Positions 10,219-63,495 of a stretch of DNA of 64,000 nt are shown one piece after another. This DNA comes from Candidatus Zixiibacteriota bacterium (lineage in GTDB: Bacteria > Zixibacteria > MSB-5A5 > GN15 > JAAZOE01): the NCBI GenBank assembly GCA_036480375.1, contig JAZGGI010000016.1, positions 156,806-220,805 of the forward strand. Reading direction: 5' to 3'. A program made the translations under genes and the position numbers. The notes under the pieces are model-generated. The model saw only the letters and a list, made by a program, of their open reading frames with translations. It had not been told where the DNA came from and did not search any database. Positions within the stretch are counted from its first letter, which is position 1. Every line of letters begins with the position of its first letter.

Positions 10219-10350
10219 TATTTTCCTCAAAAAAGTGCTTTTATAAAAATTAAACATTCTTATATTACTTATGCGAGCAACGGGGAATGTCTCCCACCTC
10301 ACAGCGCAATTACCGCCGGGAAAATGGGCAATTTACAGGAGGAAATTATT

Positions 10351-12378: not shown

Positions 12379-12401
12379 GCGGCTTTAGGGAGGTAAACAT
12401 A

Positions 12402-38363: not shown

Positions 38364-39953
38364 TCAAATACTGTGATAATCCGCGAAGAATTTTGCGTCA
38401 AGACCGCCATCGGTGCTTCGTTCGAGCAAGGCCCGCCAATTATCGCGCGCTCCAAAACGGAATATGTTCTGCACAAGATACTCACGGGTATGTTCATTAT
38501 CCAAAGCGGTGCCGTATTTTTCTTTTAGATAAAAACCGATTTGGGCCGCGATACATTCTCCAATAATTATTTCCGGAATCGAAACCGGGTCATTAACCAA
38601 ACGCGGATTTACAGCCCAGGGACTGATATGGGGATGAAACTGCAATCCCAGGATATCATCGGACAGATTTTCATATATTCGATTAAGATCGGCATAAGGA
38701 TTTCGATATAAGGCACTTTCAAATTTCCCTTCAAGGATCATTCTGCGAATTGAATAGAGCTTCATAAATCCGGAATAATTGTTTATTTCCATAACTAACG
38801 GCTCGGGTAGACCGGGATATTTTCGCAACCAGCCTTCCGTACTCAAATAGCCCGAAAATAACGCGCCTACGGCATATTCAAAACAATCGGCCGGAGCCCG
38901 AGAAAACATATAATCGGCCTGGTATATATTCGATGCGTATATCCCCTGCGATAAATTCGTTACAAGCATCATTAACTCTTCAAAACCGTCGTTTTCGGAA
39001 TATAATATCCTGATATCATTCGGTATGGCTACCGGCAATAACCGAAATTCCGAATCGGATTTTTCATGTGAAAATCTCTTAAAATAAATCGGCAAGCCAT
39101 CAAGATTGAATCCAAGTCCGGCCAGAGTCTTTCGTATTAAGGCTAAATGTGTTGAAGCCGGAAAATACGAATCCCGCGCGATTATGATATTGCGGTAAGC
39201 ATATTCAATATCCCATTCGGATAACTTTTCAATATTTAATGATTTTTTCAAAGAGTCAATTAACTCAAAATACGGATCGGCCGTTATACGGTCAAGATCA
39301 TCAATGATATTCTGCAATTCTATTTTATCAACATCCTTGACAGTCAACATCAAATCGTAATATGAGTTGTAACCCAACTTTTCAACCGCTTGATTACGAT
39401 AACGAGCCAAACGTGCAATTGGATCGCTTAGATTCTTACCGGCTTGATAAATTGCCTGAAACGCCTCTTCTCTCCTGAATCGGTTTGGCTCCGTTCTCAG
39501 GATATTATGAAGAAAATCAAGGGCTACAACCTGGCCTTCAAATGAATAAGAAATATCTCCAAGAAATACCTTAATCGAATCTGCAAGAAATGATGTTGTT
39601 TTATCTGAATCAATCGTTTCACGAGTTATTAAACTCGAAATCAATTCCATTTTTCTTAAATTATTTTTGTCGGTGAGAATATTCGAATACTTTTTTAAGT
39701 TTTTTGATAGAGCTTTGTCGTTGAGTAAATCCTTCCATGTCGATAGATAATAATTGAGAGAATCCAGGTTATTGCCAAATTCCGCCTTCCAGGTATATAT
39801 TGAAATATGACGATTGAGAAATTCCGCGCGAATTTCAAAGTTTTCAATAAATTCCTTCGCTTCCCTTTCGGACACCTGCTCTGTCTGGCACGAATTTAAA
39901 GAAATTAGTAAACAGATCAGGAAAAAACCTAAAGCACACTTTGGAAAAATCAT
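38364..39953 (-). CDS. Lipoprotein of unknown function, possibly an M3-peptidase-like fold lacking HExxH
   Basis: 529 aa with the lipobox LNSC. No HExxH occurs anywhere in the protein. LVTNLSQGIYA sits where M3/PepF enzymes have LxHExGHxxH; this is a weak by-eye resemblance. Confidence 0.4.
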   Translation of the reverse strand: MIFPKCALGFFLICLLISLNSCQTEQVSEREAKEFIENFEIRAEFLNRHISIYTWKAEFGNNLDSLNYYLSTWKDLLNDKALSKNLKKYSNILTDKNNLRKMELISSLITRETIDSDKTTSFLADSIKVFLGDISYSFEGQVVALDFLHNILRTEPNRFRREEAFQAIYQAGKNLSDPIARLARYRNQAVEKLGYNSYYDLMLTVKDVDKIELQNIIDDLDRITADPYFELIDSLKKSLNIEKLSEWDIEYAYRNIIIARDSYFPASTHLALIRKTLAGLGFNLDGLPIYFKRFSHEKSDSEFRLLPVAIPNDIRILYSENDGFEELMMLVTNLSQGIYASNIYQADYMFSRAPADCFEYAVGALFSGYLSTEGWLRKYPGLPEPLVMEINNYSGFMKLYSIRRMILEGKFESALYRNPYADLNRIYENLSDDILGLQFHPHISPWAVNPRLVNDPVSIPEIIIGECIAAQIGFYLKEKYGTALDNEHTREYLVQNIFRFGARDNWRALLERSTDGGLDAKFFADYHSI

Positions 39954-44257: not shown

Positions 44258-46045
44258 TTACATTTCATCGGGCGCTTCAATGCCCAATAAATACAGTCCT
44301 TCTTTTAAGACAATTCGAACGCAATCAACCAAAAGCATCCTGGAGGCTGTTTCATCCGGTGCGGAATCGTCGATTATTTTTATTAATCGTCCCGACTCAC
44401 CCTTACGCTGATAAAAACGATTAAAGACCGTCGCTAATCCTATTAGATATTCGGCTATGAAATTAGGTTCGTATTTATCTGCCGCCAACTCGACTATCTC
44501 GCCGAAGCGGTATAAATGCAAGGCAAGGGCCTTCTCTTCTCGAGATATATATTTTGAATAATCCACATTGGCGGTAATATCTTTTCCATATTTACGCTTC
44601 AAAGCGCATAATCGGGCGTGAGTGTACTGGAGATACGGTCCCGTTTCCCCTTCGAAGTTTAATACTTCTTCCCATGAAAAATTCACATCTTTGTGTCTCT
44701 TAACACCCAAATCGGCAAATATTACGGCTCCGATTCCAACCTGCCTCGCGGTTTGCTCCAGATTGGGTAAATCCGGATTTTTCTCCATCATGATTTTCTT
44801 AACGCGATCTTCGGCCGTATCGATAACATCATCAAGGAATATTATATTACCTTTCCGAGTCGACATTGCCTGGTCTTTGAAACGAATCCAACCGAATTCC
44901 ACATGAACCAAATTTCGGGCAAAACTTTCGCCCAGCATTTCCACGACTTTGAAAACCTGTTTAAAATGATCCTGCTGCGCGGAGCCGACTACATAAAGAG
45001 CCTTTTCGAATTTATATGTATCATGTCGATAAAATATCCCGGCTAAATCACGGGTTGCATATAATGTTGCCCCATCCCCTTTCCTGAGAAGACAAGGATT
45101 TAGGCCATGTTCGGATAAATCGACAATCAAAGCCCCTTGGGATTCCGAAGTTAATCCCGCCTGAGATAATCTTTCAATAACGGCATCCATTTTATCGTTA
45201 TAAAACGACTCGCCGGTATAATGGTCAAAGTACACGCCGAGTAAATCATAAATTCGTTTGAATTCCATTAATGAATAATCTTTAAATCCTTGCCATAGAA
45301 TGATTGCCTCATCATCTCCATCTTCAAGCTTCTTAAACCAATCTCTGGCTTCCTCTTCAAGTCCTATGTCTATACCTGAGGCATCTTCCATTGCCTCTTG
45401 CTCATGAAATTTAACATAAAGATCGTACAAATATTTTATAGGATTATTATTAAGTTCAACCTTGTTGCCCCATCGTCTATATGCGGTAATCAATTTCCCA
45501 AATTGAGTTCCCCAGTCTCCGAGGTGATTTATGCCGATTACTTTATATCCGAGTTTTTCATAAAGCCGATATAACGAATTTCCGATCGCGGTTGACCTTA
45601 GATGGCCGACTCCGAAAGGTTTGGCGATATTGGGAGACGAGAAATCGATAACGACAGATTTTCCATTTCCAATTTGCTGACTCGCGTAATTTTTTCTCTG
45701 AGAAAAAATCTCGGGCAGGATTTCACTCGCTGTTTCTTCCGGCGAAAGATTGAGATTAATATATGGACCGGCTAATGAAAATCGGGAGCTATCAAGATTC
45801 CGGAAAATCAGATTCGCGATTTCCGGAGGTTTTTTCTTTAACACCTTTGCGAGAATAAAGGTGGGAAACGCGTAGTCGCCCATTTTGGCATCCCTGGGGA
45901 TTTCCAATTTAGAAGCGAAAAAGTCGGCCAAATCCGAATCTTTGATATTCAGACTTTCTCCAATCGCGGAGATACTCTCCGGGAATGCCTTGCGCGTCGC
46001 CTCTGCCAATTGCTCAGCCGCATTAATCTTAAAAATATTATCCAT
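44258..46045 (-). CDS. argS: Arginyl-tRNA synthetase
   Basis: 595 aa with SPNIAKPFGVGHLRS and an MSTRKG region. Confidence 0.93.
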   Translation of the reverse strand: MDNIFKINAAEQLAEATRKAFPESISAIGESLNIKDSDLADFFASKLEIPRDAKMGDYAFPTFILAKVLKKKPPEIANLIFRNLDSSRFSLAGPYINLNLSPEETASEILPEIFSQRKNYASQQIGNGKSVVIDFSSPNIAKPFGVGHLRSTAIGNSLYRLYEKLGYKVIGINHLGDWGTQFGKLITAYRRWGNKVELNNNPIKYLYDLYVKFHEQEAMEDASGIDIGLEEEARDWFKKLEDGDDEAIILWQGFKDYSLMEFKRIYDLLGVYFDHYTGESFYNDKMDAVIERLSQAGLTSESQGALIVDLSEHGLNPCLLRKGDGATLYATRDLAGIFYRHDTYKFEKALYVVGSAQQDHFKQVFKVVEMLGESFARNLVHVEFGWIRFKDQAMSTRKGNIIFLDDVIDTAEDRVKKIMMEKNPDLPNLEQTARQVGIGAVIFADLGVKRHKDVNFSWEEVLNFEGETGPYLQYTHARLCALKRKYGKDITANVDYSKYISREEKALALHLYRFGEIVELAADKYEPNFIAEYLIGLATVFNRFYQRKGESGRLIKIIDDSAPDETASRMLLVDCVRIVLKEGLYLLGIEAPDEM

Positions 46046-46140
46046 ATTTTCTCAGTTAATCTCCAATGCCCCCAAATCTAAATAAGCGATTATCCGGGCG
46101 CAACAATTTTCCTTGAATATCTTTTTTGGGGAGACGAGAT

Positions 46141-49718: not shown

Positions 49719-50930
49719 TCAACGCATCGAACCGGCCAGCTTAATTATATGTTCTCCGTATTTATCTCGGATATCATCCATCGCACCGGTCAGCTTGTTA
49801 TATTTCTCATCGCTATTATCAATAATTAGTTCATATTGAGATGTCAAATCAGAATTAATTTCATTCCCTGATGAAGATTTGATCTTTTTTAATTGTGAAG
49901 CGCGAACCCCCAGCAGCCTGACTTTATATTTCATCCCGTATTCTTTGGGAACCAGTTTCACGGCGTTTTGATATATTTCATCACATCGGTCGGTCGGTTT
50001 GTTGAGAGTGTGGGCGCGGGTAATCGTCTTAAAATCGGATGATCGAATTTTGACCGAAACGGTTCTTCCGATGTAACCATGCCTTCGCATCCTGCGGGCA
50101 ACTTTATCCGACAGCCATAAGAGAATAGCTTTAATTATAGTGGGGTCATAAATATCTTCTCTGAGAGTTGTCTCATGCGACATAGACTTATCGTGAGGCA
50201 TATCTTCATAGCGCATAACCTGACCATTATCGGTTCCCCGGGACATGATTGACAATGTGTCTCCGTTTTTGCCGAATATTCGTTTGAGTATTTTTGAGTC
50301 AGTCGCGGCGAGATCCTTGACGGTAAGGATATTTTTTTGAGCCAGTGTTTTTTTGGTGCTTTCGCCTACACCCCACAAGGCATCGACCGGTTTGGGATAA
50401 AATATTTCCTTAAATCTATCCTGGTTCATAATGGTCAACCCGTTCGGTTTGTTTATCCCCGAGGCAAGTTTGGCCAGGTATCGTGTCGGGGCGATGCCGA
50501 CCGAGCAGGTTAATTTCATTTTTTCCCAGATTTCATTTTTCATTTTCTGGATCAACTCGACCGGTCCGTCATACAACCGGTCCGCTCCGGAGATATCGAG
50601 AAATGCTTCATCGATGCTGATCGGTTGCACTCTGGGCGAATATAATTCAAATATTTTCTGTAGATATGCAGAAGCGTACACATATCCTTTTAATCCGGCC
50701 GAAATAAATATTCCATGCGGGCATAATTTTCTCGCCTGAACGGCTGACATCCCGGAATGGACACCATATTTTCGGGCTTCATAAGAGCAGGTTGAAACGA
50801 CACCGCGCGGCCCGATTCCCCCTCCGACAATAACCGGTTTGCCTTTTAGGTGAGGATTATTACGCATTTCCACGGCGGCGAAAAACGCATCCATGTCAAC
50901 ATGGGCAATCACGGGTGAAAAATCGATCAT
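49719..50930 (-). CDS. dinB: DNA polymerase IV (Y-family)
   Basis: 403 aa with HVDMDAFFAAVE and SIDEAFLD. Confidence 0.92.
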   Translation of the reverse strand: MIDFSPVIAHVDMDAFFAAVEMRNNPHLKGKPVIVGGGIGPRGVVSTCSYEARKYGVHSGMSAVQARKLCPHGIFISAGLKGYVYASAYLQKIFELYSPRVQPISIDEAFLDISGADRLYDGPVELIQKMKNEIWEKMKLTCSVGIAPTRYLAKLASGINKPNGLTIMNQDRFKEIFYPKPVDALWGVGESTKKTLAQKNILTVKDLAATDSKILKRIFGKNGDTLSIMSRGTDNGQVMRYEDMPHDKSMSHETTLREDIYDPTIIKAILLWLSDKVARRMRRHGYIGRTVSVKIRSSDFKTITRAHTLNKPTDRCDEIYQNAVKLVPKEYGMKYKVRLLGVRASQLKKIKSSSGNEINSDLTSQYELIIDNSDEKYNKLTGAMDDIRDKYGEHIIKLAGSMR

Positions 50931-51179
50931 CTATTCCACCCAGATTTTACTGATAACCCAACTGGTTTTGCGCTCATCGTACGACAATTGAAAAAAATTA
51001 GACGACGAATCAACCACCGCGAAATGGCGAATACGATACGCCCCAACATCGGTTTTCCAGTCGCCGGTTACTTCAGCAATTTTGTACACCGTACCGTTCC
51101 AGCGAAACCGGGACGGTTTCATTTTGTTGTTCTGAAACAACACAACGACTTCAATAGGTTCGTCCATATCCTGATACAT
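50931..51179 (-). CDS. 82-aa protein of unknown function abutting dinB
   Basis: A GAGGGGGA SD precedes the ATG. Its stop codon (50931-50933) is immediately adjacent to the dinB start codon (50928-50930). I recognise no family. Confidence 0.55.
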   Translation of the reverse strand: MYQDMDEPIEVVVLFQNNKMKPSRFRWNGTVYKIAEVTGDWKTDVGAYRIRHFAVVDSSSNFFQLSYDERKTSWVISKIWVE

Positions 51180-51355
51180 ATCCCCCTCGCGTTACATAAA
51201 GTAATAATTTAACAATAAGCTCTTACTCATTATTATTAAAAGTATTACAAGTGTGTAGTACCTGCTCATCTATACCGCCCAAACTCTGCGAAACCGCAAT
51301 TATTGAAAACAACAAATAAAAAACAAAAAAACCAATAGAACTAAAAATGCCCGTA

Positions 51356-51976
51356 CTATCGCATGCGTCGCATCAGCCCTACGACCCGACCGGCAATATA
51401 GAATCCTGGCGTATTACGATCGACAATAATCGGTCCAAAAGCTTCGTTTTGAGGTTCAAGGCGGACACGTCGTTTCTCCGGATAGAATTTTTTGACAGTC
51501 GCTTCTTCGCCGATAACGGCCACGACAATATCGCCTTTCAGGGGATCAATATCTTTATCGACCAGTACAAAATCTCCGTCAAAAATACCGGCGTTTATCA
51601 TTGATTCACCCTTAACCCTCAAACAAAACACCTGGTCGTTAGGTAAAAATGCCGTGTCAACGGCGAGTTCCCCTTCTCGGTTTTCAATCGCGGTTATCGG
51701 CAGTCCGGCCGGAACCGAACCGACTATTGGGATGCGATTAAACGTGAGCGGCGACCGTTTGACCAGTTCGATTCCGCGTGAAACCAGTTTTTGCCGACGA
51801 ATATATCCTTTCTTTTCAAGAGCGCTCAAAATCGCCCTGACGCCATTGGTTGAGGCAATACTGAACTTGTGGCCAATCTCTCTGATAGTTGGCGGCAAAC
51901 CGGATATATTAACCATCTCCTCGATAAAATCGAGTATCTGTTGCTGCCGCCCGGTCAGTTTGTTTTTGTCAGCCAT
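51356..51976 (-). CDS. lexA: LexA repressor
   Basis: 206 aa with an N-terminal winged HTH, the VPAG cleavage site, GESM serine and ATVKKF lysine. Confidence 0.92.
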   Translation of the reverse strand: MADKNKLTGRQQQILDFIEEMVNISGLPPTIREIGHKFSIASTNGVRAILSALEKKGYIRRQKLVSRGIELVKRSPLTFNRIPIVGSVPAGLPITAIENREGELAVDTAFLPNDQVFCLRVKGESMINAGIFDGDFVLVDKDIDPLKGDIVVAVIGEEATVKKFYPEKRRVRLEPQNEAFGPIIVDRNTPGFYIAGRVVGLMRRMR

Positions 51977-52016
51977 TTATCCTCCCTGAAAAACAGGCTT
52001 TTTTCTACTACCATAC

Positions 52017-52045
52017 TTAATACTGCTCATACGTGCAGTTGTCAA
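52017..52045 (-). promoter_or_regulatory. lexA promoter with a LexA-box-like palindrome in the spacer
   Basis: Read on the minus strand: TTGACA (52040-52045), a 17-nt spacer, then TATTAA (52017-52022). The spacer is the inverted repeat ACTGC-N8-GCAGT (52022-52039), which contains TGCTC-ATAC-GTGCA (52024-52037). Confidence 0.65.
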
Positions 52046-52113
52046 TCATAAAATCGGAAGATATCTGAAAAAAATATAGAATGTGATATTAAAATGTGAT
52101 ATGGAATTTTGAA

Positions 52114-53106
52114 TTATGGAGAATAGGTAATACCCATATTTATACCGAAGTCGATGGAATTATCGAAAATATACATATTTTCCATCAAACTATATTCCAG
52201 CAAAATTCGCGATGATATTTGTTGTTTCGCTCCAAAAACCAATTCATGGGTTGGCTTGGAAAACTCCCCAAAATTACGGGACGTCCCGGAATTAGATAAT
52301 TGCTGTATAACGAATGACAGGGACTTGCTGACGGGCCATTCAACAGCGGCGAAAAAAGTCCACTGATAAGGCCTCAAATCAATTCCGTACAGGCTGCCTG
52401 AGCCATAGACTCCATAACCAATCGTTGAATAAATATATATCGGATTAACCGTATATAAGCCCGAAATGGAAAAGGCCCCATCCACTCCCCCCGAACCATA
52501 ATAATCACGGGCATTGGAGACCGGAAACCGCAACAGGCTGGTAACGGTCAGGGAATTGAACCAGCCGTCTCCGTCATATATTTTATGTCGCGAAAATAGG
52601 CTAATATCTCCCAGAACGATTTCTTTATCAGATTCATCAAGGATGACAATTCTCTCTCCTGAATCATCATCGACAAAACTGAGCGATATTGAATTTTGAG
52701 GGTATTGGTTGCGGCCTGATTGCCCCAAACCAATTTGATTATGGAACCGCGTTATGAATTGATCAAGACGGCCTCCGATACGTGTTAACACCGGTACGAA
52801 AATCCCGACTTCCGTATTTCCTCTGATTCCGGCCGCGATTTCAAAAATATTCTGAATAACCTCTACGTCGAGCAAATAATTCTCGGTTTCATTCCAGCGG
52901 TTTGTCCATGAATTGAATAAACTTATTTCAATATGCCCTGTCTCAAGCAAATTTGCTCGGGTAGGAACGATATCGAGGCGCAAAGTCTGGAGGGGCGTCT
53001 GACCGACTATATGCAACGGCCCTTTTGCCTTGAGCTCGGTCTTACTCCAGACGGCGCCACTCAAAAGCAGCATTAACAGAATATATATCGAGCGTAGTTT
53101 CATCAT
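52114..53106 (-). CDS. Exported beta-rich protein, probably an outer-membrane barrel (DUF3187-like by recollection)
   Basis: 330 aa with a signal peptide. The GGRLDQFITRFHNQIG motif resembles what I recall of DUF3187. Confidence 0.45.
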   Translation of the reverse strand: MMKLRSIYILLMLLLSGAVWSKTELKAKGPLHIVGQTPLQTLRLDIVPTRANLLETGHIEISLFNSWTNRWNETENYLLDVEVIQNIFEIAAGIRGNTEVGIFVPVLTRIGGRLDQFITRFHNQIGLGQSGRNQYPQNSISLSFVDDDSGERIVILDESDKEIVLGDISLFSRHKIYDGDGWFNSLTVTSLLRFPVSNARDYYGSGGVDGAFSISGLYTVNPIYIYSTIGYGVYGSGSLYGIDLRPYQWTFFAAVEWPVSKSLSFVIQQLSNSGTSRNFGEFSKPTHELVFGAKQQISSRILLEYSLMENMYIFDNSIDFGINMGITYSP

Positions 53107-53356
53107 ATCAAATATCTCAAGAATGACATTATGCTAATTGAGATAAGATTATTGTCGGAAACAATTCAAAATATTACAGTTTTTTTGGAGTATGAGGAAA
53201 TTTTGGGCGTAACTTAGATTAAGTTAAAAGCGTCTATATATTGAGACATAAAATAATGGAACAAGGGTATAACGAATTCCAAACTGAATTCGTATATTCC
53301 TTGACATACGGTTGAAATGTATTAGATTTTTAACAAATAGGTACGAATCGATAAAT

Positions 53357-53385: not shown

Positions 53386-53421
53386 AAATGACGAGAACTT
53401 ATATATTTAAGTGGAGGATAA

Positions 53422-54162
53422 ATGCGCAAAATATTGATTAGTGTATTCTTGACAATCCTGCTAACGGTGTTTATATCTTCGCAGATAATAGCTGTACCCA
53501 AAATGTTTCTTCCCGAAACTTCATTTGATTTTGGGTTTGTTCCGCAGAACTGCAAAGTGTCTCATGTATTCTGGATTAAGTCAGTTGGGGATGATTCGCT
53601 GAAGATATTAAACGTAAAGCCTGGCTGAGGCTGCACTAAGGCTCCGTTAACAAAGAAGGAGCTCGCTGTCGGTGACAGCACCGAATTAGAAATTATTTAT
53701 TCGACCGGTAAGAAAGTTGGCCCGTCCAGTAAACGACCCGCAATTTCAACCAATGAAGGTCCGCCAACCAAGCGGATTACTATTAAGGTACACTCCGTTC
53801 GCCAGCCTGACTCGACCTATCCGGTAGTGATTAAACCTTATCGCGTTTATGTTTCTCGAGCAGGTAAAGTCGAAGTTGACGAAGCCAAATTTACGGTAAC
53901 CAATGTCTCAGACGAAGATCTGGATTTGAAAATAGTGAGTGAGCCATATGGTTATTTACAAATTGATTTGCCTGATGAAGTAAAAGCCGGCGAAACGGCT
54001 GAATGCAAAATAAAGGTCAATGAGGATCACCTCAATCAAAGTTTCGAAAAATCGATTACGTTGGAGCTCAACGACCCAACCAAAACGCGTTTTTCCATTC
54101 CTATTATCAGGCGATTAATAGGAGGCAAAAAAGCACAGGCCAGTAACGCTGGTTCACGATAA
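53422..54162 (+). CDS. Exported DUF1573-like protein, candidate selenoprotein (in-frame UGA at 53626-53628 read as Sec)
   Basis: Track ORFs 53422-53628 and 53827-54162 share a frame, and there is no other stop between them. The joined product reads ...FDFGFVPQNCKVSHVFWIKSVGDDSLKILNVKPG-U-GCTKAPL.... A GGAGGA SD, a signal/anchor peptide and a strong terminator downstream are all present. Confidence 0.6.
53640..53663 (+). other. Candidate SECIS-like hairpin for the DUF1573-like gene
   Basis: The stem GGCUCC / GGAGCU (one G-U pair) starts 11 nt after the UGA. The loop is GUUAACAAAGAA. A second, perfect hairpin GCUGUC-GGU-GACAGC follows at 53665-53679. Confidence 0.35.
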
Positions 54163-54188
54163 AAAACAAATTCTTTAAGCAATTTACG

Positions 54189-54216
54189 ACCGCCGATTTT
54201 TTCGGCGGTTTTTTTT
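54189..54216 (+). terminator. Rho-independent terminator after the DUF1573-like gene
   Basis: ACCGCCGA-ttttt-TCGGCGGT followed by T7. Confidence 0.85.
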
Positions 54217-54220
54217 GCCC

Positions 54221-54249
54221 TTTACGTGGGCGCAAAAATATTGTATTAT
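54221..54249 (+). promoter_or_regulatory. Candidate sigma70 promoter of the HesB-like gene
   Basis: TTTACG (54221-54226), a 17-nt spacer, then TATTAT (54244-54249). Confidence 0.4.
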
Positions 54250-54320
54250 GAGTTTCTGGAAATTTTAACGACGACCGATAAAAGACCTAAAGAAGACCAA
54301 CATAGAATCGGGAGATATTG

Positions 54321-54689
54321 ATGGTAACCATCTCAGAACTTGCCTCTGTGGAGCTTAATAAAGTTATGCAGTCTGAAAACGCCAGGGGAAAAAGTTTATT
54401 TGTCAATTTCATGGGGTATGGTTGAAGCGGACCCGTCCTGGGTTTGGCTCTGGATGAGCCGGAAGAAGGTCTGACCAACTTTAATTCCAAAGGTATAGAA
54501 GTATTTATGCACTCCGCTTTAGCGGATCAATTGCAGCAATTTGGGGGCGTATCTATTGACTTTATAGATGAGGGGCCCGACCGCAGGGGATTTGTGATTG
54601 CGACTAATAACAAACCCGCGGGGCATGATTGCAAAGGATGCAATACCGATTCGGGGTGTAGTTCCGAGGAAGATAATAAAGGCGAATGA
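54321..54689 (+). CDS. HesB/IscA-like protein, candidate selenoprotein (in-frame UGA at 54423-54425 read as Sec)
   Basis: ATG 54321 follows a GGGAG SD. The first 34 codons run into a TGA and then continue in the same frame as track ORF 54444-54689. The product reads ...SLFVNFMGYG-U-SGPVLGLALDEPEEG...IDFIDEG...HDCKGC, colinear with IscA (..GCSG.., ..DF..EG.., C-terminal CxxC-like). Confidence 0.65.
54443..54463 (+). other. Candidate SECIS-like hairpin for the HesB-like gene
   Basis: GGCUC-UGGAU-GAGCC (54446-54460), extendable by two U-G pairs and one U-A pair. The loop starts 28 nt after the U of UGA. An alternative hairpin lies at 54428-54446 with loop GUCCU. Confidence 0.35.
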
Positions 54690-54758: not shown

Positions 54759-56189
54759 CTACCAATCATTGTCTCTTGAATCTCGCCAATCGCTATCAGT
54801 ATCATCTTCTTTATCAAGAATCTGTTGCCAGACGGGATCATATTTCTCTCTCGGATGAGTCGAATGAACTAACCTGTAATCGCCGATCTGAGCCATGAAA
54901 TCATTGACAAATACGAATATTTTGCGACCGTCCAAATTATAATAGGTCCATTTTTGATACGGATAACTGCGGCCTTCCATTTCAACCGTTTCAGCGTCAT
55001 TATACGGACCATAAGTAATATATATCCGGCCGCGGTCGGTTTTCCAGCCATCTTTGGTATCGGAGCGAGTCGATAACATCTCATTGGCGAATACAAATCT
55101 CCGAATCGCTTCTTCATATACGGGATTTTTCGCGTCGGATGGGTCATCATCCCTGGTTCGCCAGAACTGATGAATAAAATTCTTTTTGCCCTCAATCGAT
55201 AATTTGTCAATCTGGATTTTCTCGGCTTCAGAAAGATGATAATATGCTATATTCCTCATCAGTTCAACATCTTCAATCGAATACTGTTTTTGGGCGAGTT
55301 CGGACGCAACTATCGAAATCGCTTTGGAAGCCAAAGTCTTTGCGCCGGTAGCCGCATCGGTAACCTCAAAAATCAAATAATAATCCCCCGTGGGTATCGA
55401 AGGCAGTTCCAAACAATTAACAACAACTGCCGATGTTCCGGGCTTATCTTTGGCTTGGCCTCCGAAATCATGTATTAAATTCCCGTTCATGTCCTTAAGG
55501 GAATAATTGGTAAAAAACTTTTTAATTTTGGCGGAGGTAAATTCTTCCTCGAAAGATAATCCGTATAACTCGGCATAGACCCAGATATGTTTATTCAAAA
55601 ATGCTTGATATCGGCCGGTTGGATTCGGAATTACGACCCGATCCTGTTTTATCAATCGATTATTGACAGGTGAATCATCATCTAAATTCAAGGTTGATAT
55701 CTCAAAAGCCACCTGTAAGTCGCTACACCTAAGACCCGGCTGAAAATAATCAGGAATTTCGGCAACGATAGTATTCCGGCTCGATTTTTTGGAGACATCA
55801 TCCACGGCCGAACACAAAATACGATAGTGACCGGGATCCAAATGCAGACCCAATAAATCAAAAAGCTGTATCCCCTGCCTCAGACTTTCTTCACGGTCTT
55901 TTACTCGGCTTAGAAAATATGTTGATGCAGAATCCAGTGCAGCGCCTGATTCATCATACGCGATTGCCGACAAATAAACACCGGCATAAAGATATTCGCT
56001 CGTATCAGAACCAATAAAGCCCAGTTCATCACGATTCAATCCGCAATATATCTCGATATATGGCCGCTTTTCCGCCAAATCGGCATAAGATGCGTAATCG
56101 GTTAAAAATGTCAAAGAATTACCGGTCGCTCCGGAAATACTTCCCAGAGCTAAAAGCGCAATTGCAAATGCCAGAATGATCCGTATCAT
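54759..56189 (-). CDS. GWxTD domain-containing exported protein
   Basis: 476 aa with a signal peptide and a C-terminal DGWKTDRGRIYITYGPYND. Confidence 0.7.
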   Translation of the reverse strand: MIRIILAFAIALLALGSISGATGNSLTFLTDYASYADLAEKRPYIEIYCGLNRDELGFIGSDTSEYLYAGVYLSAIAYDESGAALDSASTYFLSRVKDREESLRQGIQLFDLLGLHLDPGHYRILCSAVDDVSKKSSRNTIVAEIPDYFQPGLRCSDLQVAFEISTLNLDDDSPVNNRLIKQDRVVIPNPTGRYQAFLNKHIWVYAELYGLSFEEEFTSAKIKKFFTNYSLKDMNGNLIHDFGGQAKDKPGTSAVVVNCLELPSIPTGDYYLIFEVTDAATGAKTLASKAISIVASELAQKQYSIEDVELMRNIAYYHLSEAEKIQIDKLSIEGKKNFIHQFWRTRDDDPSDAKNPVYEEAIRRFVFANEMLSTRSDTKDGWKTDRGRIYITYGPYNDAETVEMEGRSYPYQKWTYYNLDGRKIFVFVNDFMAQIGDYRLVHSTHPREKYDPVWQQILDKEDDTDSDWRDSRDNDW

Positions 56190-56191
56190 TA

Positions 56192-57514
56192 TTAATTCCC
56201 AAATCCTAAACCGTCATAAGGCGGTTGTAATTCATAATTCCCGTCGCCCCATTCATCAATAAACAGAAATTTCCGAGGCGGATTCGTACGGAAATAGTGC
56301 CAGATCTGATAGGGTTTTGTCGCTAATTCAAAAGGGTAATCCTCGACCTCATCCGGAGGACCGTAGGTTATATAAATCATACCCCGAGTGGTCTTCCAGC
56401 CATCTCTATTCATAAAGGTGAAGTATCGATTGGAATGTCGGACGCGGCGAAAATACTCTGCTTTGGCGGGATTAATCCTGGTATTGCCCTCGGATGCCCT
56501 GATAGCCCAGAATTCATCCCAAACACGCCGGCGCTCTTCCAGAGTCTTGGCCTCTTTTAGTTTCTTGTGCTCTTTATTATTGGTGAGGTATTTCAGCATG
56601 TCTATCAGCTTTTTATAGTCTGTTACGAACATGCCTTCGCCCGTCAATTTCATTTCGATTTCTTCGGTTATTTTATCATACTCTCTGCCCCGGCGACCGA
56701 TTAATTTTAGTTCCAGTTCATAGTCTCCGGGATAAATATCCTTAATATTGATGTTTTGAAATTCTCGCTTTATATCGTTAATCTCTCCGTAAGAAATCGT
56801 ATCGGTCCGCATGAGTCCTTTATGGCGGTGATAAAGGCCGATAATTAGTTTGGTATATTTATCCTTTTTTCTCCCCGGATAGACTTCATGATAGAACGAC
56901 AACAGGCTGTCGTCTTCCCCGCCGAAAACCCGTATAACCCTGGGAATAATTCTCATATCCTTTTTATTGAATTTTGATGATCTGGTTGATTCGGCTATTT
57001 CATGGGCTAACTCAACTCGAGAGATTGTGGGATATTTTTGGGTATAAGATTTCTTGGACATTTTTTTTGATATCGTGGCCAGCACCGATCCGGATTCATC
57101 GGTTAAAGATGCGTTAATGTTAATATCCTGCGGTTCAAAAGAAAATGAAACCATATTGATGACAAAATCTTCCGAGCGTCTGGTTTCGGCGTAACTGCTG
57201 ACTTTTATTTTCCCATCTTTTGTAATTCCCTCAATTGGTTGATTGTCTTCCCCGATAACATTAAACGAAATTTCATATCTGGCTTCATACCCATCCTGCA
57301 ATTTTTGATAACCAAAAGCGTCATAAAATATCTTGTAATAAATTTCGAGGATATTCTTCTCATCTTCGCCGGAATAAAAATCCACCGCATCTATTGTAAA
57401 TCTATCCTCACCAAATTCATTGGAAGCTCGATAGCCTGTTTGATCCGATACGCAAATCCCGTTACCAATCAGAAGAACTATGATTAGTATGGCAAAGCTC
57501 AGTCTCTTATTCAT
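56192..57514 (-). CDS. GWxTD domain-containing exported protein (second copy)
   Basis: The C-terminus reads DGWKTTRGMIYITYGPPDEVE. I prefer the start ATG 57512-57514 (MNKRLSFAILII...) over the track TTG 57544. Confidence 0.7.
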   Translation of the reverse strand: MNKRLSFAILIIVLLIGNGICVSDQTGYRASNEFGEDRFTIDAVDFYSGEDEKNILEIYYKIFYDAFGYQKLQDGYEARYEISFNVIGEDNQPIEGITKDGKIKVSSYAETRRSEDFVINMVSFSFEPQDININASLTDESGSVLATISKKMSKKSYTQKYPTISRVELAHEIAESTRSSKFNKKDMRIIPRVIRVFGGEDDSLLSFYHEVYPGRKKDKYTKLIIGLYHRHKGLMRTDTISYGEINDIKREFQNINIKDIYPGDYELELKLIGRRGREYDKITEEIEMKLTGEGMFVTDYKKLIDMLKYLTNNKEHKKLKEAKTLEERRRVWDEFWAIRASEGNTRINPAKAEYFRRVRHSNRYFTFMNRDGWKTTRGMIYITYGPPDEVEDYPFELATKPYQIWHYFRTNPPRKFLFIDEWGDGNYELQPPYDGLGFGN

Positions 57515-57576
57515 GTTACACCACCAATCTCTTATACAAAGCAATCTAAACTCCGGCTAACTTTCAGGCAAGCCAA

Positions 57577-58827
57577 TTATTCATAACGCAGTGAGATAAT
57601 TGGATCGGTTCGAGCCGCTTTGAAGGCCGGATAAATCCCGGCTACTAATCCCACCATTATAGATACGGAAAAACCAATACACATCCATAATATAGAGACG
57701 GTGAAAGGCAGTGAAAAGAGCAATTTTGCGAGTAATGCAAGTAAAATACCTGCAATAATGCCCAAAACCCCTCCGGTCGCCGAAAGAGTCATGGCTTCGG
57801 TTAAAAATTGTATAATTATATTAAGTCTTTTAGCCCCGATTGCTTTGCGGACTCCTATTTCCCTCGTCCGCTCAGTGACTGATACCAGCATTATATTCAT
57901 AACACCAACGCCCCCGACTGTGAGGCCAACGGATGAAATTACAATCATAGCTATATATATAACATTGGCGATATCACCGGCCATGTCTTTTAACTTATCC
58001 TGCGTCCAGACGGCGAAATCGTTATCTTTATCATAAGGAACGCCGCGAATTCCCCGCATGGTCGTGATTACTTCTTCCATAGCCTGATCAATTTTATCGG
58101 GACCGTCGGCAGAAACTCGAAGAAACAATGCCTTTTCCCAAGGAATAAGTTTTTCAAAAGTTCCATAAGGAATCGCGACAAAATTGTTTACCCCTCCCGC
58201 ATTAACAAATGAATTGTCAAGTTTCTCCAGGACGCCGACAACAAGAAATTCTCGAGTATTAATTCTAATATTTTTATTTATCGGGTCGTCATTGGGGAAA
58301 AGCGCGGTCGCAACATCATCGCCCAAAACGCATACCATAGCCCGGCGTTGTTCCTCAAACTCATTAAAGAATCTTCCGCGATTTAATACTCGATTTGTAA
58401 CTTTTATATAGTCCGGTAAAGTTCCGAACATAGCAGGGTAATTAGCCTGATTATTCTTATATTTTATAACATTACCGCCACTGGCTCTATAGTAATTTTC
58501 CGGAGCAACGGCTGAGACTGATGGACAATTTTCACGAATCGCCTGGGCCGCTTCAAAATCAATCCATTTACGATTTCTATCTTCTTCTGATAGCTCCCCC
58601 CTATCCACATCAGGCGCAAAACGAGTAACAAATATGACGTTTGATCCAAGTCCTTCAATTTCGCTGACGAGTTTTTTATCAAGCCCTGCAATAATCGAAG
58701 CCAATCCCAAAACAGTCGCTACAGCAATAAGAACTCCGAGAATCGTCATTCCTGCCCGGAATTTATTGGATCTAATCGCGTCCATTGCAAGACCAATTCC
58801 ATCGCGTATTTCAATGAGACTAATCAT
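57577..58827 (-). CDS. ABC transporter permease (MacB/FtsX family)
   Basis: 416 aa with an N-terminal TM helix, a large periplasmic domain and a C-terminal FtsX 3-TM bundle (ERTREIGVRKAIGA). Confidence 0.85.
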   Translation of the reverse strand: MISLIEIRDGIGLAMDAIRSNKFRAGMTILGVLIAVATVLGLASIIAGLDKKLVSEIEGLGSNVIFVTRFAPDVDRGELSEEDRNRKWIDFEAAQAIRENCPSVSAVAPENYYRASGGNVIKYKNNQANYPAMFGTLPDYIKVTNRVLNRGRFFNEFEEQRRAMVCVLGDDVATALFPNDDPINKNIRINTREFLVVGVLEKLDNSFVNAGGVNNFVAIPYGTFEKLIPWEKALFLRVSADGPDKIDQAMEEVITTMRGIRGVPYDKDNDFAVWTQDKLKDMAGDIANVIYIAMIVISSVGLTVGGVGVMNIMLVSVTERTREIGVRKAIGAKRLNIIIQFLTEAMTLSATGGVLGIIAGILLALLAKLLFSLPFTVSILWMCIGFSVSIMVGLVAGIYPAFKAARTDPIISLRYE

Positions 58828-58831
58828 AACT

Positions 58832-60052
58832 TTACTCGTAACTTAACGCCTTTATAGGATCAAGTTTGGCCGCTTTCATAGCCGGATATATCCCAAAAAA
58901 CATACCGACCCCGGTAGATATTAGTATTCCCGCGATAATGGCGAATAATGACGGTGTAATGGGGAGTGAAATTTGACTACCCAGGATAATCGCGACAGTT
59001 ATTCCAAGCGCGGTCCCGATAATGCCGCCGCCCAGGGACAGGATTAAAGACTCGTAGAGAAATTGCATCATAATATTTTTGCGGCGGGCTCCGATAGATT
59101 TGCGAATGCCGATTTCGCGAGTTCTCTCTGATACGGAGACCATCATAATATTCATAATCACGATTCCGCCGACAACAAGCGCAATTGATGAAATTCCAAT
59201 AAGCGCAAAACGAAGTATGCGTGTGATATTATTTACAAATGTCATGATGCTTTCGGCTGTCAGTAATCCAAAATCATCATCATCGTAATATGATACTCCG
59301 CGACGGGCTCGAAGTATTGATCTAACCTGGTCTTGCGTATCTACTGTTTTCTCAACAGACGTAGATTTTACTAATATATCCAGATTATGCCTCGGTTTGC
59401 CGAAAAGTTTTATCTGGGTTGACAATGGAATCAGCACAAAATTATCCTGATTATTTCCCATAGTCGAGCCTCGCTTGAGTGCGATGCCAATAACCTTAAA
59501 TTTACGCCCGCCTATTTTAAGAACTTTGCCAATAGGATCTTCACCGGGATAGAGTTCTTCCTGTACGGTAGGTCCTATAAAGGCAACCTGTCGTTTATGC
59601 AAATACTCCATCTCGGTCATCGAACGTCCCTGTCCGACCTCAAAATCCAGAACCTGCATAAAATTAGCTGTCGCTCCGGCGATGGGCACATTATTCAGAC
59701 TATTATTTTTCCGCTTTATAGTCCTAAATCTATAAGCACGCGCCGCTACGGCCTCACAATCCAGACACCCATCTTCTACGGCGTCCCTGTCTTTCAGGGT
59801 TAGGTCTTTTCGCTTCATGGCGTCAAGATACTCATCCCTTGTAGTTATCATTCCAAATTTGGTGACAATGAAAGTCGATGGGCCAAGTACGCTCAAAGAA
59901 TCTTCAATACTGCTCATAAATCCTTCGACGGCGGAAATTATCGTTATTACCGAAGTTACCCCGATAACGACACCAAAAAGGGTTAGGCCTGAGCGGAGTT
60001 TATTGGCCCACAAAGCCTGGAGAGCAAGCTTTATTGATTCGATAGCGTTCAA
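58832..60052 (-). CDS. ABC transporter permease (MacB/FtsX family), paralog
   Basis: 406 aa with the same architecture (ERTREIGIRKSIGA). Confidence 0.85.
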   Translation of the reverse strand: MNAIESIKLALQALWANKLRSGLTLFGVVIGVTSVITIISAVEGFMSSIEDSLSVLGPSTFIVTKFGMITTRDEYLDAMKRKDLTLKDRDAVEDGCLDCEAVAARAYRFRTIKRKNNSLNNVPIAGATANFMQVLDFEVGQGRSMTEMEYLHKRQVAFIGPTVQEELYPGEDPIGKVLKIGGRKFKVIGIALKRGSTMGNNQDNFVLIPLSTQIKLFGKPRHNLDILVKSTSVEKTVDTQDQVRSILRARRGVSYYDDDDFGLLTAESIMTFVNNITRILRFALIGISSIALVVGGIVIMNIMMVSVSERTREIGIRKSIGARRKNIMMQFLYESLILSLGGGIIGTALGITVAIILGSQISLPITPSLFAIIAGILISTGVGMFFGIYPAMKAAKLDPIKALSYE

Positions 60053-60079
60053 TTAAATACCCTTCAATAGCATTCGCGT

Positions 60080-60769
60080 TTATCCCGTTTCGCGATATTC
60101 TTCTTTTTCGATTGCGCCGTCCCGGAGGAAAATAACGCGTTGTGCCTTTTGCGCGATCGTATATTCGTGCGTGACCACGATAACGGTATTGCCCTGCCGA
60201 TGCAAATCAGAAAGCAAATCCATGATCTCATTACCGGTATTGGTATCGAGATTACCGGTTGGTTCGTCGGCCAGAATAATTGAGGGATTGTTTACCAGAG
60301 CCCGCGCGATAGCCACTCGCTGGCGTTGCCCGCCGGATAGTTCATTTGGCTTGTGAGTCATGCGATCCCCAAGGCCTACGATTTCAAGAGCCTTTTTAGC
60401 CTTTTCAGTTCGGCCTTCGCGCGCGGTACCATTGTAAATTAATGGAAGCTCGACGTTATGAAGTGATGTCGCCCGCGGTAGTAGGTTGAATGTTTGAAAT
60501 ACGAATCCGATTTCTTTATTTCGGATACGGGCCAACTCGTCGTCATTTAAGTCGGCAACATCCTGCCCGTTCAGTAAATATACTCCACGAGTGGGCGTAT
60601 CGAGACAGCCGATTAAATACATAAGCGTCGATTTGCCGGACCCGGAAGGTCCCATTATCGCTACATATTCACCCTTGCGAATCTGTAAGGTTACGCCTCG
60701 AAGGGCGTTGACCTGTTCTTCGCCCATTTGATATATTCTCCACAGGTCATCAACTTGTATCAGGCTCAT
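60080..60769 (-). CDS. ABC transporter ATP-binding protein (MacB/LolD-type)
   Basis: 229 aa with [18 protein letters not shown] and ILADEPT. Confidence 0.9.
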
Positions 60770-60775
60770 ACCTAA

Positions 60776-62107
60776 TTAATCCTCATTTTTATCCGGATTT
60801 TCAACCTTTATTGCTTGTCCATCCTTAATGGTTCGCAAAGTCCTAAAACTACCCGTGATAACTTCATCCTCTTCTTCCAAACCGGATAATACCTCGTAGT
60901 TTTTCTGGTCAACAATTCCGGTTTCGATTTCGACAAATGTAGCAATCCCGTCGCGGTTTACAAAAACACCTTTTTTCTCTATTTTTTCTTTATCGCCTTT
61001 GCTCTTTTTGACTTTCGCCGAATCCGATTCTTCGGTCGTGGCGGCAATGGCCACTCCGGGCTCATCGCTCGCTTCGGCAGGTTTTTCGGCCGCGGCCAGG
61101 GAATCCGGATCAAATTTCCTCATTACAACCGCTTGTATGGGAACCGCCAAAACATCATTATGTTCATTGGTTACGATATCAACGGTAGAAGACATCCCCG
61201 GTCTGATCTTGGGATGCAAATCAAGCAGGGTAACTATGACCTTGAAATTTGTTGACTGGTCGCTGGAACCGAATCCGACCAGGGTAGCGGTATTTCCAAT
61301 TTCGACAACCTCACCGGCAAAAGTGGTATCGGGAAAAGCATCGATTTCGATTGAAGCCGTTTGGTACAATTCCAGATCGGCAATATCAGTTTCATCAATT
61401 TCGACCTCAATTTCAAAGGCCGACAAATCGGAAACAACCATTAAGGTTTTACCCTGAGTAAACGATGTCTGAGCTTGCGCTATTTCACCCTTCTCGGCGT
61501 CAACCAGAGTCACAGTTCCGTCCATCGGAGACTTAATGGTTGTCTTGCTCAAATTATCGCGAGCTTTCTTAAGACGAGAGCGGGAAGCGTTTTTCTGCTG
61601 TATCCATGCTTTATATTCAGATTCCTGCCTTTGGAAAGCATAGTTGGCATTGGTATAGGCCTGTTCCGATGTCAGCTTCTTCTCGTAAAGACCTTTCTGG
61701 CGATTGTATTCATCGCGATATTGATCCAATAAGACCTTGGCCCCTTCAACCCTTGCCTCGGTTTCATTGGCGTTGTACAAAGCCGATTCCATATCTGACT
61801 TGAGCTGAATCGTATCCAGTTGAATTAAAATCTGGCCGTTCCTGACATAATCGCCTTCCTTAATGGGAAGGCTGATAATCTCGGCATTGACTTCGGAGAC
61901 TATGTTCACCTTGGTTTTTGGCTCAACCCGGCCCGAACCGGATACCTTTGAAATGATATCTGCCTGCTCAATAACTTTAGTCTGCACGGAAATTTCCGAA
62001 CGGAACGAACTTTGCAGGTTGATTATAACCATAGCTCCGATCAGGATTACTCCGGCGATAACGCCTAAAATTATATATAGTTTCTTTTTTGACTTTTTCT
62101 TCTCCAT
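60776..62107 (-). CDS. Periplasmic adaptor (HlyD/MacA-like membrane fusion protein)
   Basis: 443 aa with an N-terminal anchor, a coiled-coil hairpin and beta-barrel segments. Confidence 0.8.
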   Translation of the reverse strand: MEKKKSKKKLYIILGVIAGVILIGAMVIINLQSSFRSEISVQTKVIEQADIISKVSGSGRVEPKTKVNIVSEVNAEIISLPIKEGDYVRNGQILIQLDTIQLKSDMESALYNANETEARVEGAKVLLDQYRDEYNRQKGLYEKKLTSEQAYTNANYAFQRQESEYKAWIQQKNASRSRLKKARDNLSKTTIKSPMDGTVTLVDAEKGEIAQAQTSFTQGKTLMVVSDLSAFEIEVEIDETDIADLELYQTASIEIDAFPDTTFAGEVVEIGNTATLVGFGSSDQSTNFKVIVTLLDLHPKIRPGMSSTVDIVTNEHNDVLAVPIQAVVMRKFDPDSLAAAEKPAEASDEPGVAIAATTEESDSAKVKKSKGDKEKIEKKGVFVNRDGIATFVEIETGIVDQKNYEVLSGLEEEDEVITGSFRTLRTIKDGQAIKVENPDKNED

Positions 62108-62148
62108 ATTGCCACCCTAAATATCCTGTTTTAGTGGATACCTCCTAC

Positions 62149-63495
62149 TTATTTCCCCATCGCGTTTTGCAATTTTGCGATGGCCAGGTTATAATCGAAT
62201 TCGGCTTTGACATTGGTAAACTGAGCGCTCTTGAGACTCACCTGGGCGTCGAGAAGCTCCCACAATGCCGCCGCGCCGAGGTTATACTTGGTCTGCACCA
62301 AATCCATATCTTCGGCCGCCGACCGTTCAGTTTCCTCTGTTACAATTAAAGTTTCCTCGGCAATTTGAACTTCAAGATGTGCGTCATCTATTCTTCTCAC
62401 GATCTCATTTTTAGCAAATTCGTAGCTTGCACGAGAGTTATTATAATTAGCCTTGGCCCGGCTAAGATTCAATTCTCTTGAAAAACGATCAAAAATATTA
62501 TAACTAACGGTAAAAGACAAAGTCCCGCTATGATCAAAAGGGCCAAATTTAATCATATCGCTAAAGTGATCTTTCCCCCACCCATAAGAATAACTTAGAG
62601 TTGCGCGCGGAAGATATTGACCTTTTGCGGATCTAACGCCATATTTGGAAACGTCCAGATAATTTTTTGAACTTAGTAATTGAGGATGTTCTTTGCGCGC
62701 GCTGGTTATCATTGCATTCACGTCATCAAGTTGCACCTTGCCAATTTCTATATTTGACACATCAAATTCAGTAACCGGGTCAATGCCAATTGACACCGCC
62801 AAGACATCAAAAGCGATTTCATGGTTTCTTCGCGCTCGGATTTGAGTTAATTTGTCCTGCCCCAATTGTACTCTCTGTTTAAGAACTTCGGAAAGCGAAG
62901 CCGAGCCTAATTCATATTTCGCTTCAAATAATTTTAAAAGTTCCTCTGATCGGTTTACGGTTTCCTTGGCAACCTCAAGGTCTTTTTTGGATTTTAAGAC
63001 CAAATAATAATTGCCTTTGATTGCCAATTCCAAATCTGACATACTCAGAGCGTAATCATATTCAGTCGCTGACTTATTTGCTTTACTCTGTAAATAATTC
63101 CATAAATTGTTCAAACCGTCAAATACAGTATAGTTTATATTGAATCCCGCGCTATAACCTTTAATTTTATAACCGATTGTATCTGCCAAGTTTTCTGTTG
63201 AGGTGACCAATTCGTTTAAATCCGGATCAAAATAAGTAACTGTTCTCAGGCGCGGTGATTCGGGACCTGATGTAATTTCGCGAGAAGAAAAAGAGACTCC
63301 AACAGATGGCAAAAACTGCCCTGCAGCATTCCTGACTTCCCAATTGGAAGTTTTGACCGCATTTCGGAATCGTTCCAGAGTCGGATCGGTTCGTTTAGCC
63401 ATGTCAATACATTCGTCGAGTGTGTATATTTTGGCAAAAGATGAAGCTCCCATAAGAGCAATTACAATAATCAAAAACAAAGAAACCTTTTTCAT
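62149..63495 (-). CDS. TolC-family outer membrane channel
   Basis: 448 aa with a signal peptide and the two-repeat TolC pattern. Confidence 0.8.
   Translation of the reverse strand: MKKVSLFLIIVIALMGASSFAKIYTLDECIDMAKRTDPTLERFRNAVKTSNWEVRNAAGQFLPSVGVSFSSREITSGPESPRLRTVTYFDPDLNELVTSTENLADTIGYKIKGYSAGFNINYTVFDGLNNLWNYLQSKANKSATEYDYALSMSDLELAIKGNYYLVLKSKKDLEVAKETVNRSEELLKLFEAKYELGSASLSEVLKQRVQLGQDKLTQIRARRNHEIAFDVLAVSIGIDPVTEFDVSNIEIGKVQLDDVNAMITSARKEHPQLLSSKNYLDVSKYGVRSAKGQYLPRATLSYSYGWGKDHFSDMIKFGPFDHSGTLSFTVSYNIFDRFSRELNLSRAKANYNNSRASYEFAKNEIVRRIDDAHLEVQIAEETLIVTEETERSAAEDMDLVQTKYNLGAAALWELLDAQVSLKSAQFTNVKAEFDYNLAIAKLQNAMGK

Follow-up and report, generated by a model that had tools for sequence, protein, structure and literature searches.

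Two selenoproteome reviews, of 2022 and 2026 (PMC9312934, PMC13188914), count DUF1573 (PF07610) with the motif UGC among the selenoprotein families. Selenocysteine (Sec, U) was first predicted in this family in the delta-symbionts of Olavius algarvensis, where two sequences made up the hypothetical family OS_HP2 (Zhang and Gladyshev 2007; PMC1976440). Here we describe a DUF1573 gene on a 64,000-nucleotide (nt) stretch of DNA from Candidatus Zixiibacteriota (Zixibacteria; assembly GCA_036480375.1, contig JAZGGI010000016.1). This whole stretch is called the window, and all coordinates are window positions. An earlier note on the window had singled out an in-frame UGA in this gene as a candidate Sec codon. 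Our analyses indicate that the UGA is very probably decoded as Sec and that both halves of the interrupted frame are translated.

The gene shares with DUF1573/OS_HP2 the Pfam domain, the position of Sec (U-G-C in place of C-G-C), the occurrence of Sec/Cys pairs, and a UGA followed by stem-loops. This likeness is one of motif as published, and the published UGC (PMC9312934, PMC13188914) was equated with U69-G70-C71 of the window protein by motif rather than by residue alignment. The window protein differs from OS_HP2 in coming from Zixibacteria, not deltaproteobacteria, and in having a second immunoglobulin (Ig)-like domain; its relatives are publicly called as open reading frames (ORFs) of 165 to 190 amino acids (aa). 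The curated model NF041425, "OS_HP2 family (seleno)protein," matched residues 30 to 124 (profile positions 1 to 94 of 98; E = 1.4e-21). Since the score of 76.6 bits lies below the curated cutoff of 100, the gene belongs to a homologous clade outside the NF041425 subfamily. Since the family and the place of Sec in it were already on record (PMC1976440, PMC9312934, PMC13188914, NF041425), the locus opens no new category, and the novelty that the earlier note attached to a Sec-containing DUF1573 was overstated. The searchable literature held no functional study of DUF1573 and nothing specific on selenium use in Zixibacteria.

The in-frame UGA lies at a conserved Cys column

The features of the gene are collected in Table 1. 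As read from the sequence, the frame has a single internal stop, the TGA at codon 69. When U was replaced by C, the read-through protein matched PF07610 with 90.5 bits (E = 7e-26; profile positions 5 to 96 of 98), well above the gathering threshold of 26.1 bits, and the match places it in the Pfam family. The C-x-C-T motif that follows the third strand reads PG-U-G-C-T in the window and PG-C-x-C-T in all full-length homologs.

Table 1. Positions of the DUF1573 gene, its signals, domains, and RNA hairpins, and of the gene directly downstream
Feature	Position	Strand	Remark
Promoter-like site TTGACA-16 nt-TAGATT (candidate only)	53301..53328	+	consensus scan, 10/12 matches
Shine-Dalgarno GGAGG	53413..53417	+	4 nt ahead of ATG; read directly from sequence
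Predicted selenoprotein coding sequence	53422..54162	+	246 codons, Sec = codon 69, then TAA stop
Predicted signal peptide of the Sec (secretion) type, residues 1-24	53422..53493	+	cleavage after IIA; sequence features
DUF1573 (PF07610) Ig-like domain, residues 32-123	53515..53790	+	Pfam profile match
Putative Sec codon UGA (U69)	53626..53628	+	first position of U-G-C motif; C71 = TGC 53632-53634
Proximal hairpin GGCUCC / 12-nt loop / GGAGCU	53640..53663	+	starts 11 nt past UGA
Distal hairpin GCUGUC-GGU-GACAGC	53665..53679	+	stem starts 36 nt past UGA; encodes A-V-G-D-S
Second Ig-like beta-sandwich, about residues 135-232	53824..54117	+	AlphaFold2 model of homolog P0002; Foldseek
Intrinsic terminator, 9-bp stem and T-run	54188..54220	+	closes DUF1573 transcription unit
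IscA/HesB-type selenoprotein gene	54321..54689	+	separately transcribed, directly downstream behind terminator
IscA/HesB proximal hairpin, covarying	54429..54445	+	starts 3 nt past UGA
IscA/HesB distal hairpin GGCUC-UGGAU-GAGCC, invariant	54446..54460	+	

A protein search returned 257 relatives, all from Zixibacteria wherever a taxon was named. They fell into two length classes, one of about 240 to 256 aa containing PG-C-x-C-T and one of about 165 to 190 aa that starts just past the motif, as expected of gene callers that restart after the in-frame stop. We also collected 56 loci (2 to 13 kb) from species-representative genomes, mostly of Zixibacteria, and anchored DUF1573 copies on the window protein by tblastn, which gave a census over 57 sources. 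At the Sec column, 58 copies had TGA, 42 had TGC, and 17 had TGT. Of the 57 sources, 56 had a TGA copy; the exception (L008) comes from the same metagenome-assembled genome as a locus that does have one (L013). In every full-length homolog, the TGA column aligned to the first Cys of PG-C-x-C-T.

The sequence beyond the TGA behaves as coding sequence. Each of the 58 TGA copies has exactly one internal stop, after which 125 to 196 codons remain open. The median ratio of nonsynonymous to synonymous substitution rates (dN/dS) was 0.19 upstream of the TGA (44 codons) and 0.21 downstream (61 codons). Between the window and L001, a relative with 90% identity, dN was 0.038 and dS was 0.82 in the C-terminal part (ratio, 0.046). 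TGA is also an ordinary terminal stop here: of the 42 long ORFs in the window, 11 end in it, as do 10 of the 58 Sec copies, so the genetic code is not globally changed; truB (stop at 991 to 993) and the gene at 10324 to 12378 both terminate in it. What the earlier note had read from the window is thus borne out: a single 246-codon frame with one TGA, its own Shine-Dalgarno sequence, signal peptide, promoter candidate, and terminator; a UGA at the first Cys of the DUF1573 CGC motif; and no genome-wide recoding. Comparison with relatives, which the note had named as a check, came out in favor of Sec, with a conserved Cys column (58 TGA and 59 TGC or TGT codons) and no decay downstream of the TGA.

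Two hairpins follow the UGA in Sec copies

The earlier note had also described a hairpin 11 nt past the UGA and a perfect hairpin with a GGU loop, and both are present as described. The distal one is nearly invariant. Its 15-mer occurs at the same offset in all 58 TGA copies, in four near-identical variants, versus 49 distinct sequences among the 59 Cys copies; within the window it is found once. The stem is 6 bp long (7 bp in most orthologs), and the 3-nt loop reads GGU (56 of the TGA copies) or GGC (2 copies). Third-position entropy from +39 to +53 was 0.12 bits in 44 TGA copies versus 0.84 bits in 15 Cys paralogs, which at this site read GCC GCC GGC, GCC TCC GGC, and the like. All cells of the distal helix (100%) were paired in the alignment, and the RNAalifold consensus kept it as the only strongly paired, fully conserved helix. 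Long-range pairing seen in the single-sequence minimum free energy (MFE) structure was rejected, being unsupported by the alignment.

The proximal hairpin is variable in sequence and conserved in pairing. Of its alignment cells, 84% were paired, and 18 cells had changed on both sides of the helix, compared with 6.6 in shuffled alignments, none of 500 shuffles reaching the observed value; the compensatory changes include UA-to-AU exchanges in both directions. The hairpin forms in every Sec copy, and Cys paralogs have neither hairpin. Taken descriptively, mean folding energies in Sec copies and Cys paralogs were -10.2 versus -4.3 kcal/mol for the proximal hairpin and -8.6 versus -2.2 kcal/mol at the distal site. 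The RNA has left its mark on the protein. Sec copies encode A-V-G-D-S with fixed codons, and Cys paralogs encode A-A/S/P-G-D-S with free codons; the RNA requirement fixes Val where the paralogs have Ala, Ser, or Pro.

We compared both hairpins with the published model of the bacterial Sec insertion sequence (bSECIS), which has a loop of 3 to 9 nt, an upper stem of 4 to 16 bp, an MFE of ≤-7.5 kcal/mol, a G in one of the first two loop positions that is usually followed by G or U, and 16 to 37 nt between UGA and loop (PMC13188914, Fig. 2 legend). The distal hairpin agrees with this model in loop and stem size, in the G-G/U rule, and in energy (-8.3 kcal/mol in the window), and departs from it in spacing, which is 42 nt (53629 to 53670). 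Conversely, the proximal hairpin has a suitable spacing (17 nt to the loop) and energy (-9.1 kcal/mol), and its 12-nt loop is too long. Set against canonical elements such as that of fdhF and those modeled by bSECISearch, the DUF1573 element is similar in lying within the coding sequence immediately 3′ of the UGA, at a strictly fixed distance, with a 6-bp stem of comparable energy and a 3-nt GGU loop. It is dissimilar in the distance of that loop from the UGA, in the separate covarying hairpin that lies between, and in matching no Rfam model.

Since the distal hairpin fits the model in loop, G rule, and energy and the proximal loop is long and unconserved, we propose that the distal hairpin is probably the SelB-binding apical stem-loop of the SECIS and that the proximal hairpin may be a folded spacer or auxiliary helix. 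In the proposed mechanism, SelB carrying Sec-tRNA(Sec) would bind the invariant distal hairpin, whose G-G-U apical loop fits the bacterial SECIS consensus, and would deliver Sec to the UGA, which lies 36 nt ahead of the distal stem. The proximal hairpin would fold away 24 nt and leave a path of about 11+1 nt between the UGA and the SelB hairpin. The minimal SECIS of E. coli fdhF reportedly has a spacing of 11 nt, to which this effective path would be similar. The idea that the two hairpins form a SECIS therefore stands in part: an RNA structure specific to Sec copies does follow the UGA, but its likely SelB element is the second, invariant hairpin and not the one 11 nt away.

A neighboring IscA/HesB gene has the same hairpin layout

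Directly downstream lies a second gene with an in-frame UGA (54423 to 54425), of the IscA/HesB type. The UGA falls within GYG-U-SG, which is the Sec position of curated selenoprotein models; the gene matched NF038090 (IscA_HesB_Se; E = 8.7e-16) and TIGR01911 (HesB_rel_seleno; E = 6.8e-9), in both cases below the cutoffs. As in the IscA/HesB selenoproteins covered by these models, U takes the place of the first cluster-ligand Cys (G-x-G-U-S-G). The gene belongs to a different family than DUF1573, its product is cytoplasmic, and it has its own transcription; its TGA and its synteny with the DUF1573 gene are kept in 10 loci, and adjacency is limited to these closest ones. For Sec decoding of UGA in the lineage, it is an independent line of evidence.

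Two hairpins, one variable and proximal and one invariant and distal, follow the UGA here as well, so that the same layout is common to two unrelated selenoprotein mRNAs of the lineage. In the IscA/HesB gene, the distal hairpin agrees with the bSECIS model on all four criteria, with GG in the loop and the loop 25 nt from the UGA, which supports the proposal that SelB binds the distal hairpin in the DUF1573 mRNA.

A different assignment of the two hairpins has to be considered, in which Sec is inserted but SelB binds the proximal hairpin, the distal one serving in pausing, mRNA stability, or protein constraint. The position of the proximal hairpin is canonical: from the UGA it is 17 nt to the loop and, as in E. 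coli fdhF, 11 nt to the stem. This hairpin covaries, and its loop starts with GU in the window. Moreover, Cys paralogs likewise conserve the 3′ arm of the distal hairpin, GAC AGC (G-D-S), and a protein or codon constraint thus accounts for some of the distal conservation. However, the proximal loop varies among orthologs in both sequence and length, whereas known SelB systems recognize a specific sequence. The distal 5′ arm GCU GUC and the third loop base are fixed in Sec copies only, and in the IscA/HesB gene, where the invariant distal hairpin conforms to the model throughout, the proximal hairpin begins too close to the UGA to stay folded. We consider SelB binding to the proximal hairpin unlikely and retain the distal hairpin as the probable SelB site.

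Evidence against Sec insertion and other explanations of the UGA

Several results weigh against decoding of the UGA as Sec. No selA, selB, or selD was found by Pfam among the 47 long ORFs of the window, which comprise housekeeping genes and a MacB/HlyD/OEP exporter, or in about 0.6 Mb of related loci, and ARAGORN identified no tRNA-Sec in the 64-kb window and the 56 loci. A search of 53560 to 54560 with Rfam, at the gathering threshold and at E ≤ 10, returned no SECIS family; the matches near 54150 to 54220 were to the terminator hairpin only. Neither hairpin is canonical on every count, the distal loop lying beyond the range of spacings in the bSECIS model and the suitably spaced proximal loop being unconserved. 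The fold of 53620 to 53700 as a single sequence was no better than that of shuffled sequences (z = -1.04); the window by itself was thus not enough for a decision, and it is the comparative data that lend significance. Both the energy comparisons between Sec and Cys copies and the shuffles disregard phylogenetic relatedness and are read as descriptive. The score against NF041425 is below the curated cutoff, as given above. The role of the U-x-C motif is argued by analogy, with a structure model made for a Cys homolog that is 65% identical. Lastly, Sec in the DUF1573 family is itself known from computation alone (PMC1976440, PMC9312934, PMC13188914).

Some of these points would also suit recoding of the UGA to an amino acid other than Sec, whether by read-through with Cys, Trp, or Gly or by SelB-like delivery of a Cys-tRNA: the Sec machinery was not found in the window and the 56 loci, the 42-nt spacing is noncanonical, and selenium incorporation in the family is a prediction. 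Against this, the column is Cys in all paralogs, making a classic Sec/Cys pair; the G-G-U loop fits the bSECIS consensus; the adjacent gene is of an established selenoprotein type, IscA/HesB, with its UGA where the curated models place Sec; and DUF1573 with U-G-C is catalogued as a selenoprotein in Sec-decoding deltaproteobacteria (PMC9312934, PMC13188914, PMC1976440). Recoding to another residue is, in our assessment, very improbable.

If the gene were a pseudogene disabled by the TGA, only a 68-residue peptide and/or a fragment from the GTG at 53827 would be made, and gene callers do split the frame into 53422 to 53628 and 53827 to 54162, just as the public ORFs of relatives start past the TGA. 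The same TGA nevertheless recurs, as the one internal stop, in copies with 45 to 90% protein identity; selection downstream of it equals that upstream; and a pseudogene would have no reason to keep a conserved RNA structure specific to Sec copies, so this explanation is effectively refuted. A sequencing or assembly error for TGC or TGT, although a single base separates TGA from TGC, has a negligible chance of being correct, given that the identical TGA stands in dozens of assemblies made independently, by different assemblers and in different studies, always with the hairpin codons GCT GTC GGT that true TGC paralogs lack. Taken together, the conserved TGA, the single internal stop, the low dN/dS, and the TGA terminators exclude a pseudogene, an assembly error, and genome-wide reassignment; decoding as Sec explains the data best.

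Predicted localization, fold, and role of the U-G-C motif

The N-terminus, MRKILISVFLTILLTVFISSQIIA followed by VPK, has the n, h, and c regions of a signal peptide and an AxA-like cleavage site, and the alignment of homologs keeps the junction as A-x-A before [VL]P[KR]. The mature protein would accordingly be periplasmic or surface located after cleavage, an assignment of low certainty. Beyond DUF1573, the read-through protein matched the related HYDIN/VesB Ig-like family in Pfam, and its second domain gave a weak match to the Ig-like DUF5001. An AlphaFold2 model of the Cys homolog P0002 (65% identical to the window protein; 44 aligned sequences) had a predicted local distance difference test (pLDDT) score of 91.9 and consisted of two Ig-like beta-sandwiches preceded by an N-terminal helix that corresponds to the signal peptide. 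The C-G-C of this model lies at the start of a long loop after the third strand; by extension, U69-G-C71 is placed, with low certainty, in the loop after the third strand of the first Ig-like sandwich. Foldseek matched generic tandem ASH/HYDIN/PapD-like Ig domains and the uncharacterized Porphyromonas gingivalis protein 2qsv. No enzyme fold appeared in the P0002 model or among the Foldseek results, and the family profile had no match among Protein Data Bank (PDB) sequences.

The C-terminal tails that follow the conserved RRLIG are of low complexity, and many homologs end in G-G-H, G-G-K, or S-G-H (alignment columns 235 to 267). The window protein ends in AGSR after the RRLIG region.

By analogy with other Sec/Cys pairs, an exposed U69-G-C71 may form a reversible selenenylsulfide and act as a redox-active site or as one that binds a soft metal or metalloid, as opposed to a classical enzyme active site; we put this forward tentatively. 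Exported DsbA-like, DsbG-like, and thioredoxin-fold selenoproteins are comparable in having a signal peptide, a Sec with a nearby Cys, and presumed selenenylsulfide cycling. Compared with such thiol-disulfide oxidoreductases, the window protein is Ig-like (ASH/PapD/HYDIN-like), has U-x-C and not U/C-x-x-C, and shows no evident catalytic context. The export of a Sec protein, as suggested in the earlier note, is supported, but an extracytoplasmic selenoprotein is not unprecedented; DsbA-like and DsbG-like proteins are in the catalogues.

Paralogs and annotation

Most Zixibacteria loci (L002, L006, L007, L014, and L021 to L056) contain two or three tandem DUF1573 paralogs, located about 700 to 900 nt on either side of the Sec copy. 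Such a set pairs the Sec type with an upstream, distant Cys type (motif K-T-G-C-x-C-A), and some loci also have a recent Cys copy. There are two Sec copies in L006, and L046 has a second one that is divergent; in the window, the Sec copy stands alone.

In a rough neighbor-joining tree, the KTGCxCA Cys clade formed the outgroup, and the Sec forms made up one clade in which Cys forms were nested several times beside Sec neighbors. This nesting suggests that Sec is ancestral in the Zixibacteria clade and that duplication and replacement of Sec by Cys in the paralogs occurred repeatedly. Public calls of Sec-type copies (P0010, P0027, P0032, P0033, P0036, and others) start after the UGA, an example being an NCBI entry of 186 aa named "DUF1573 domain-containing protein"; Sec-type genes are thus systematically misannotated in the phylum.

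Genomic context

Convergent with the DUF1573 gene is a minus-strand operon (54759 to 63495) that encodes two GWxTD-domain proteins, two MacB/FtsX permeases, an ABC ATPase, HlyD, and an OEP/TolC-like outer membrane factor. This arrangement is kept in about 50 of the 56 loci, even where neighbors are only 25 to 30% identical, and a functional link between the DUF1573 protein and the exporter operon may exist.

On the other side, also on the minus strand, 49719 to 53106 holds genes for DUF3187 (52114 to 53106), lexA (51356 to 51976), and a Y-family impB/mucB/samB DNA polymerase (49719 to 50930), a trio that looks like an SOS-type cassette. DUF3187 occupies this position in four loci only. Farther away, two overlapping plus-strand ORFs of 684 and 559 aa (10324 to 12378 and 12369 to 14048) matched no Pfam family except weak dockerin repeats near their C-termini.

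Two other TGA codons of the window that are followed by long open extensions were attributed to chance. At 38364 (38364 to 39953, minus strand), the extension has no coding character and overlaps a MatE gene out of frame; at 46051, the extension before the ArgRS gene (44258 to 46045, minus strand) overlaps the end of an MFS gene.

Discussion

What this locus adds to the catalogued family is incremental: a phylum-wide clade in Zixibacteria whose public entries are truncated, a two-hairpin SECIS with a 42-nt spacing, an A-V-G-D-S stretch imposed by the RNA, and repeated turnover from Sec to Cys in paralogs. More speculatively, Zixibacteria might possess a distinct class of SECIS in which an invariant SelB hairpin beyond 37 nt is brought into range by a covarying spacer hairpin, together with a U-x-C on an exported Ig-like scaffold that serves as an extracytoplasmic redox or metalloid site and is perhaps tied to the GWxTD/MacB-type ABC exporter operon. 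We hold this combined picture to be possible and, for now, doubtful. If it is true, the two-hairpin SECIS escapes SECIS-based predictors, and the selenoproteome of the phylum would therefore be under-called.

For the phylum, the results confirm, at the high probability given to Sec decoding above, a real selenoprotein gene of a kind that public annotation splits into fragments. For SECIS-based gene finding, the two hairpins and the 42-nt spacing are a practical caution, and the fixed A-V-G-D-S codons show clearly how an RNA signal can constrain a protein. For the family, the fact that an entire candidate phylum has retained Sec at the C-x-C of DUF1573 points to this motif as the functional center of a widespread, uncharacterized exported domain.

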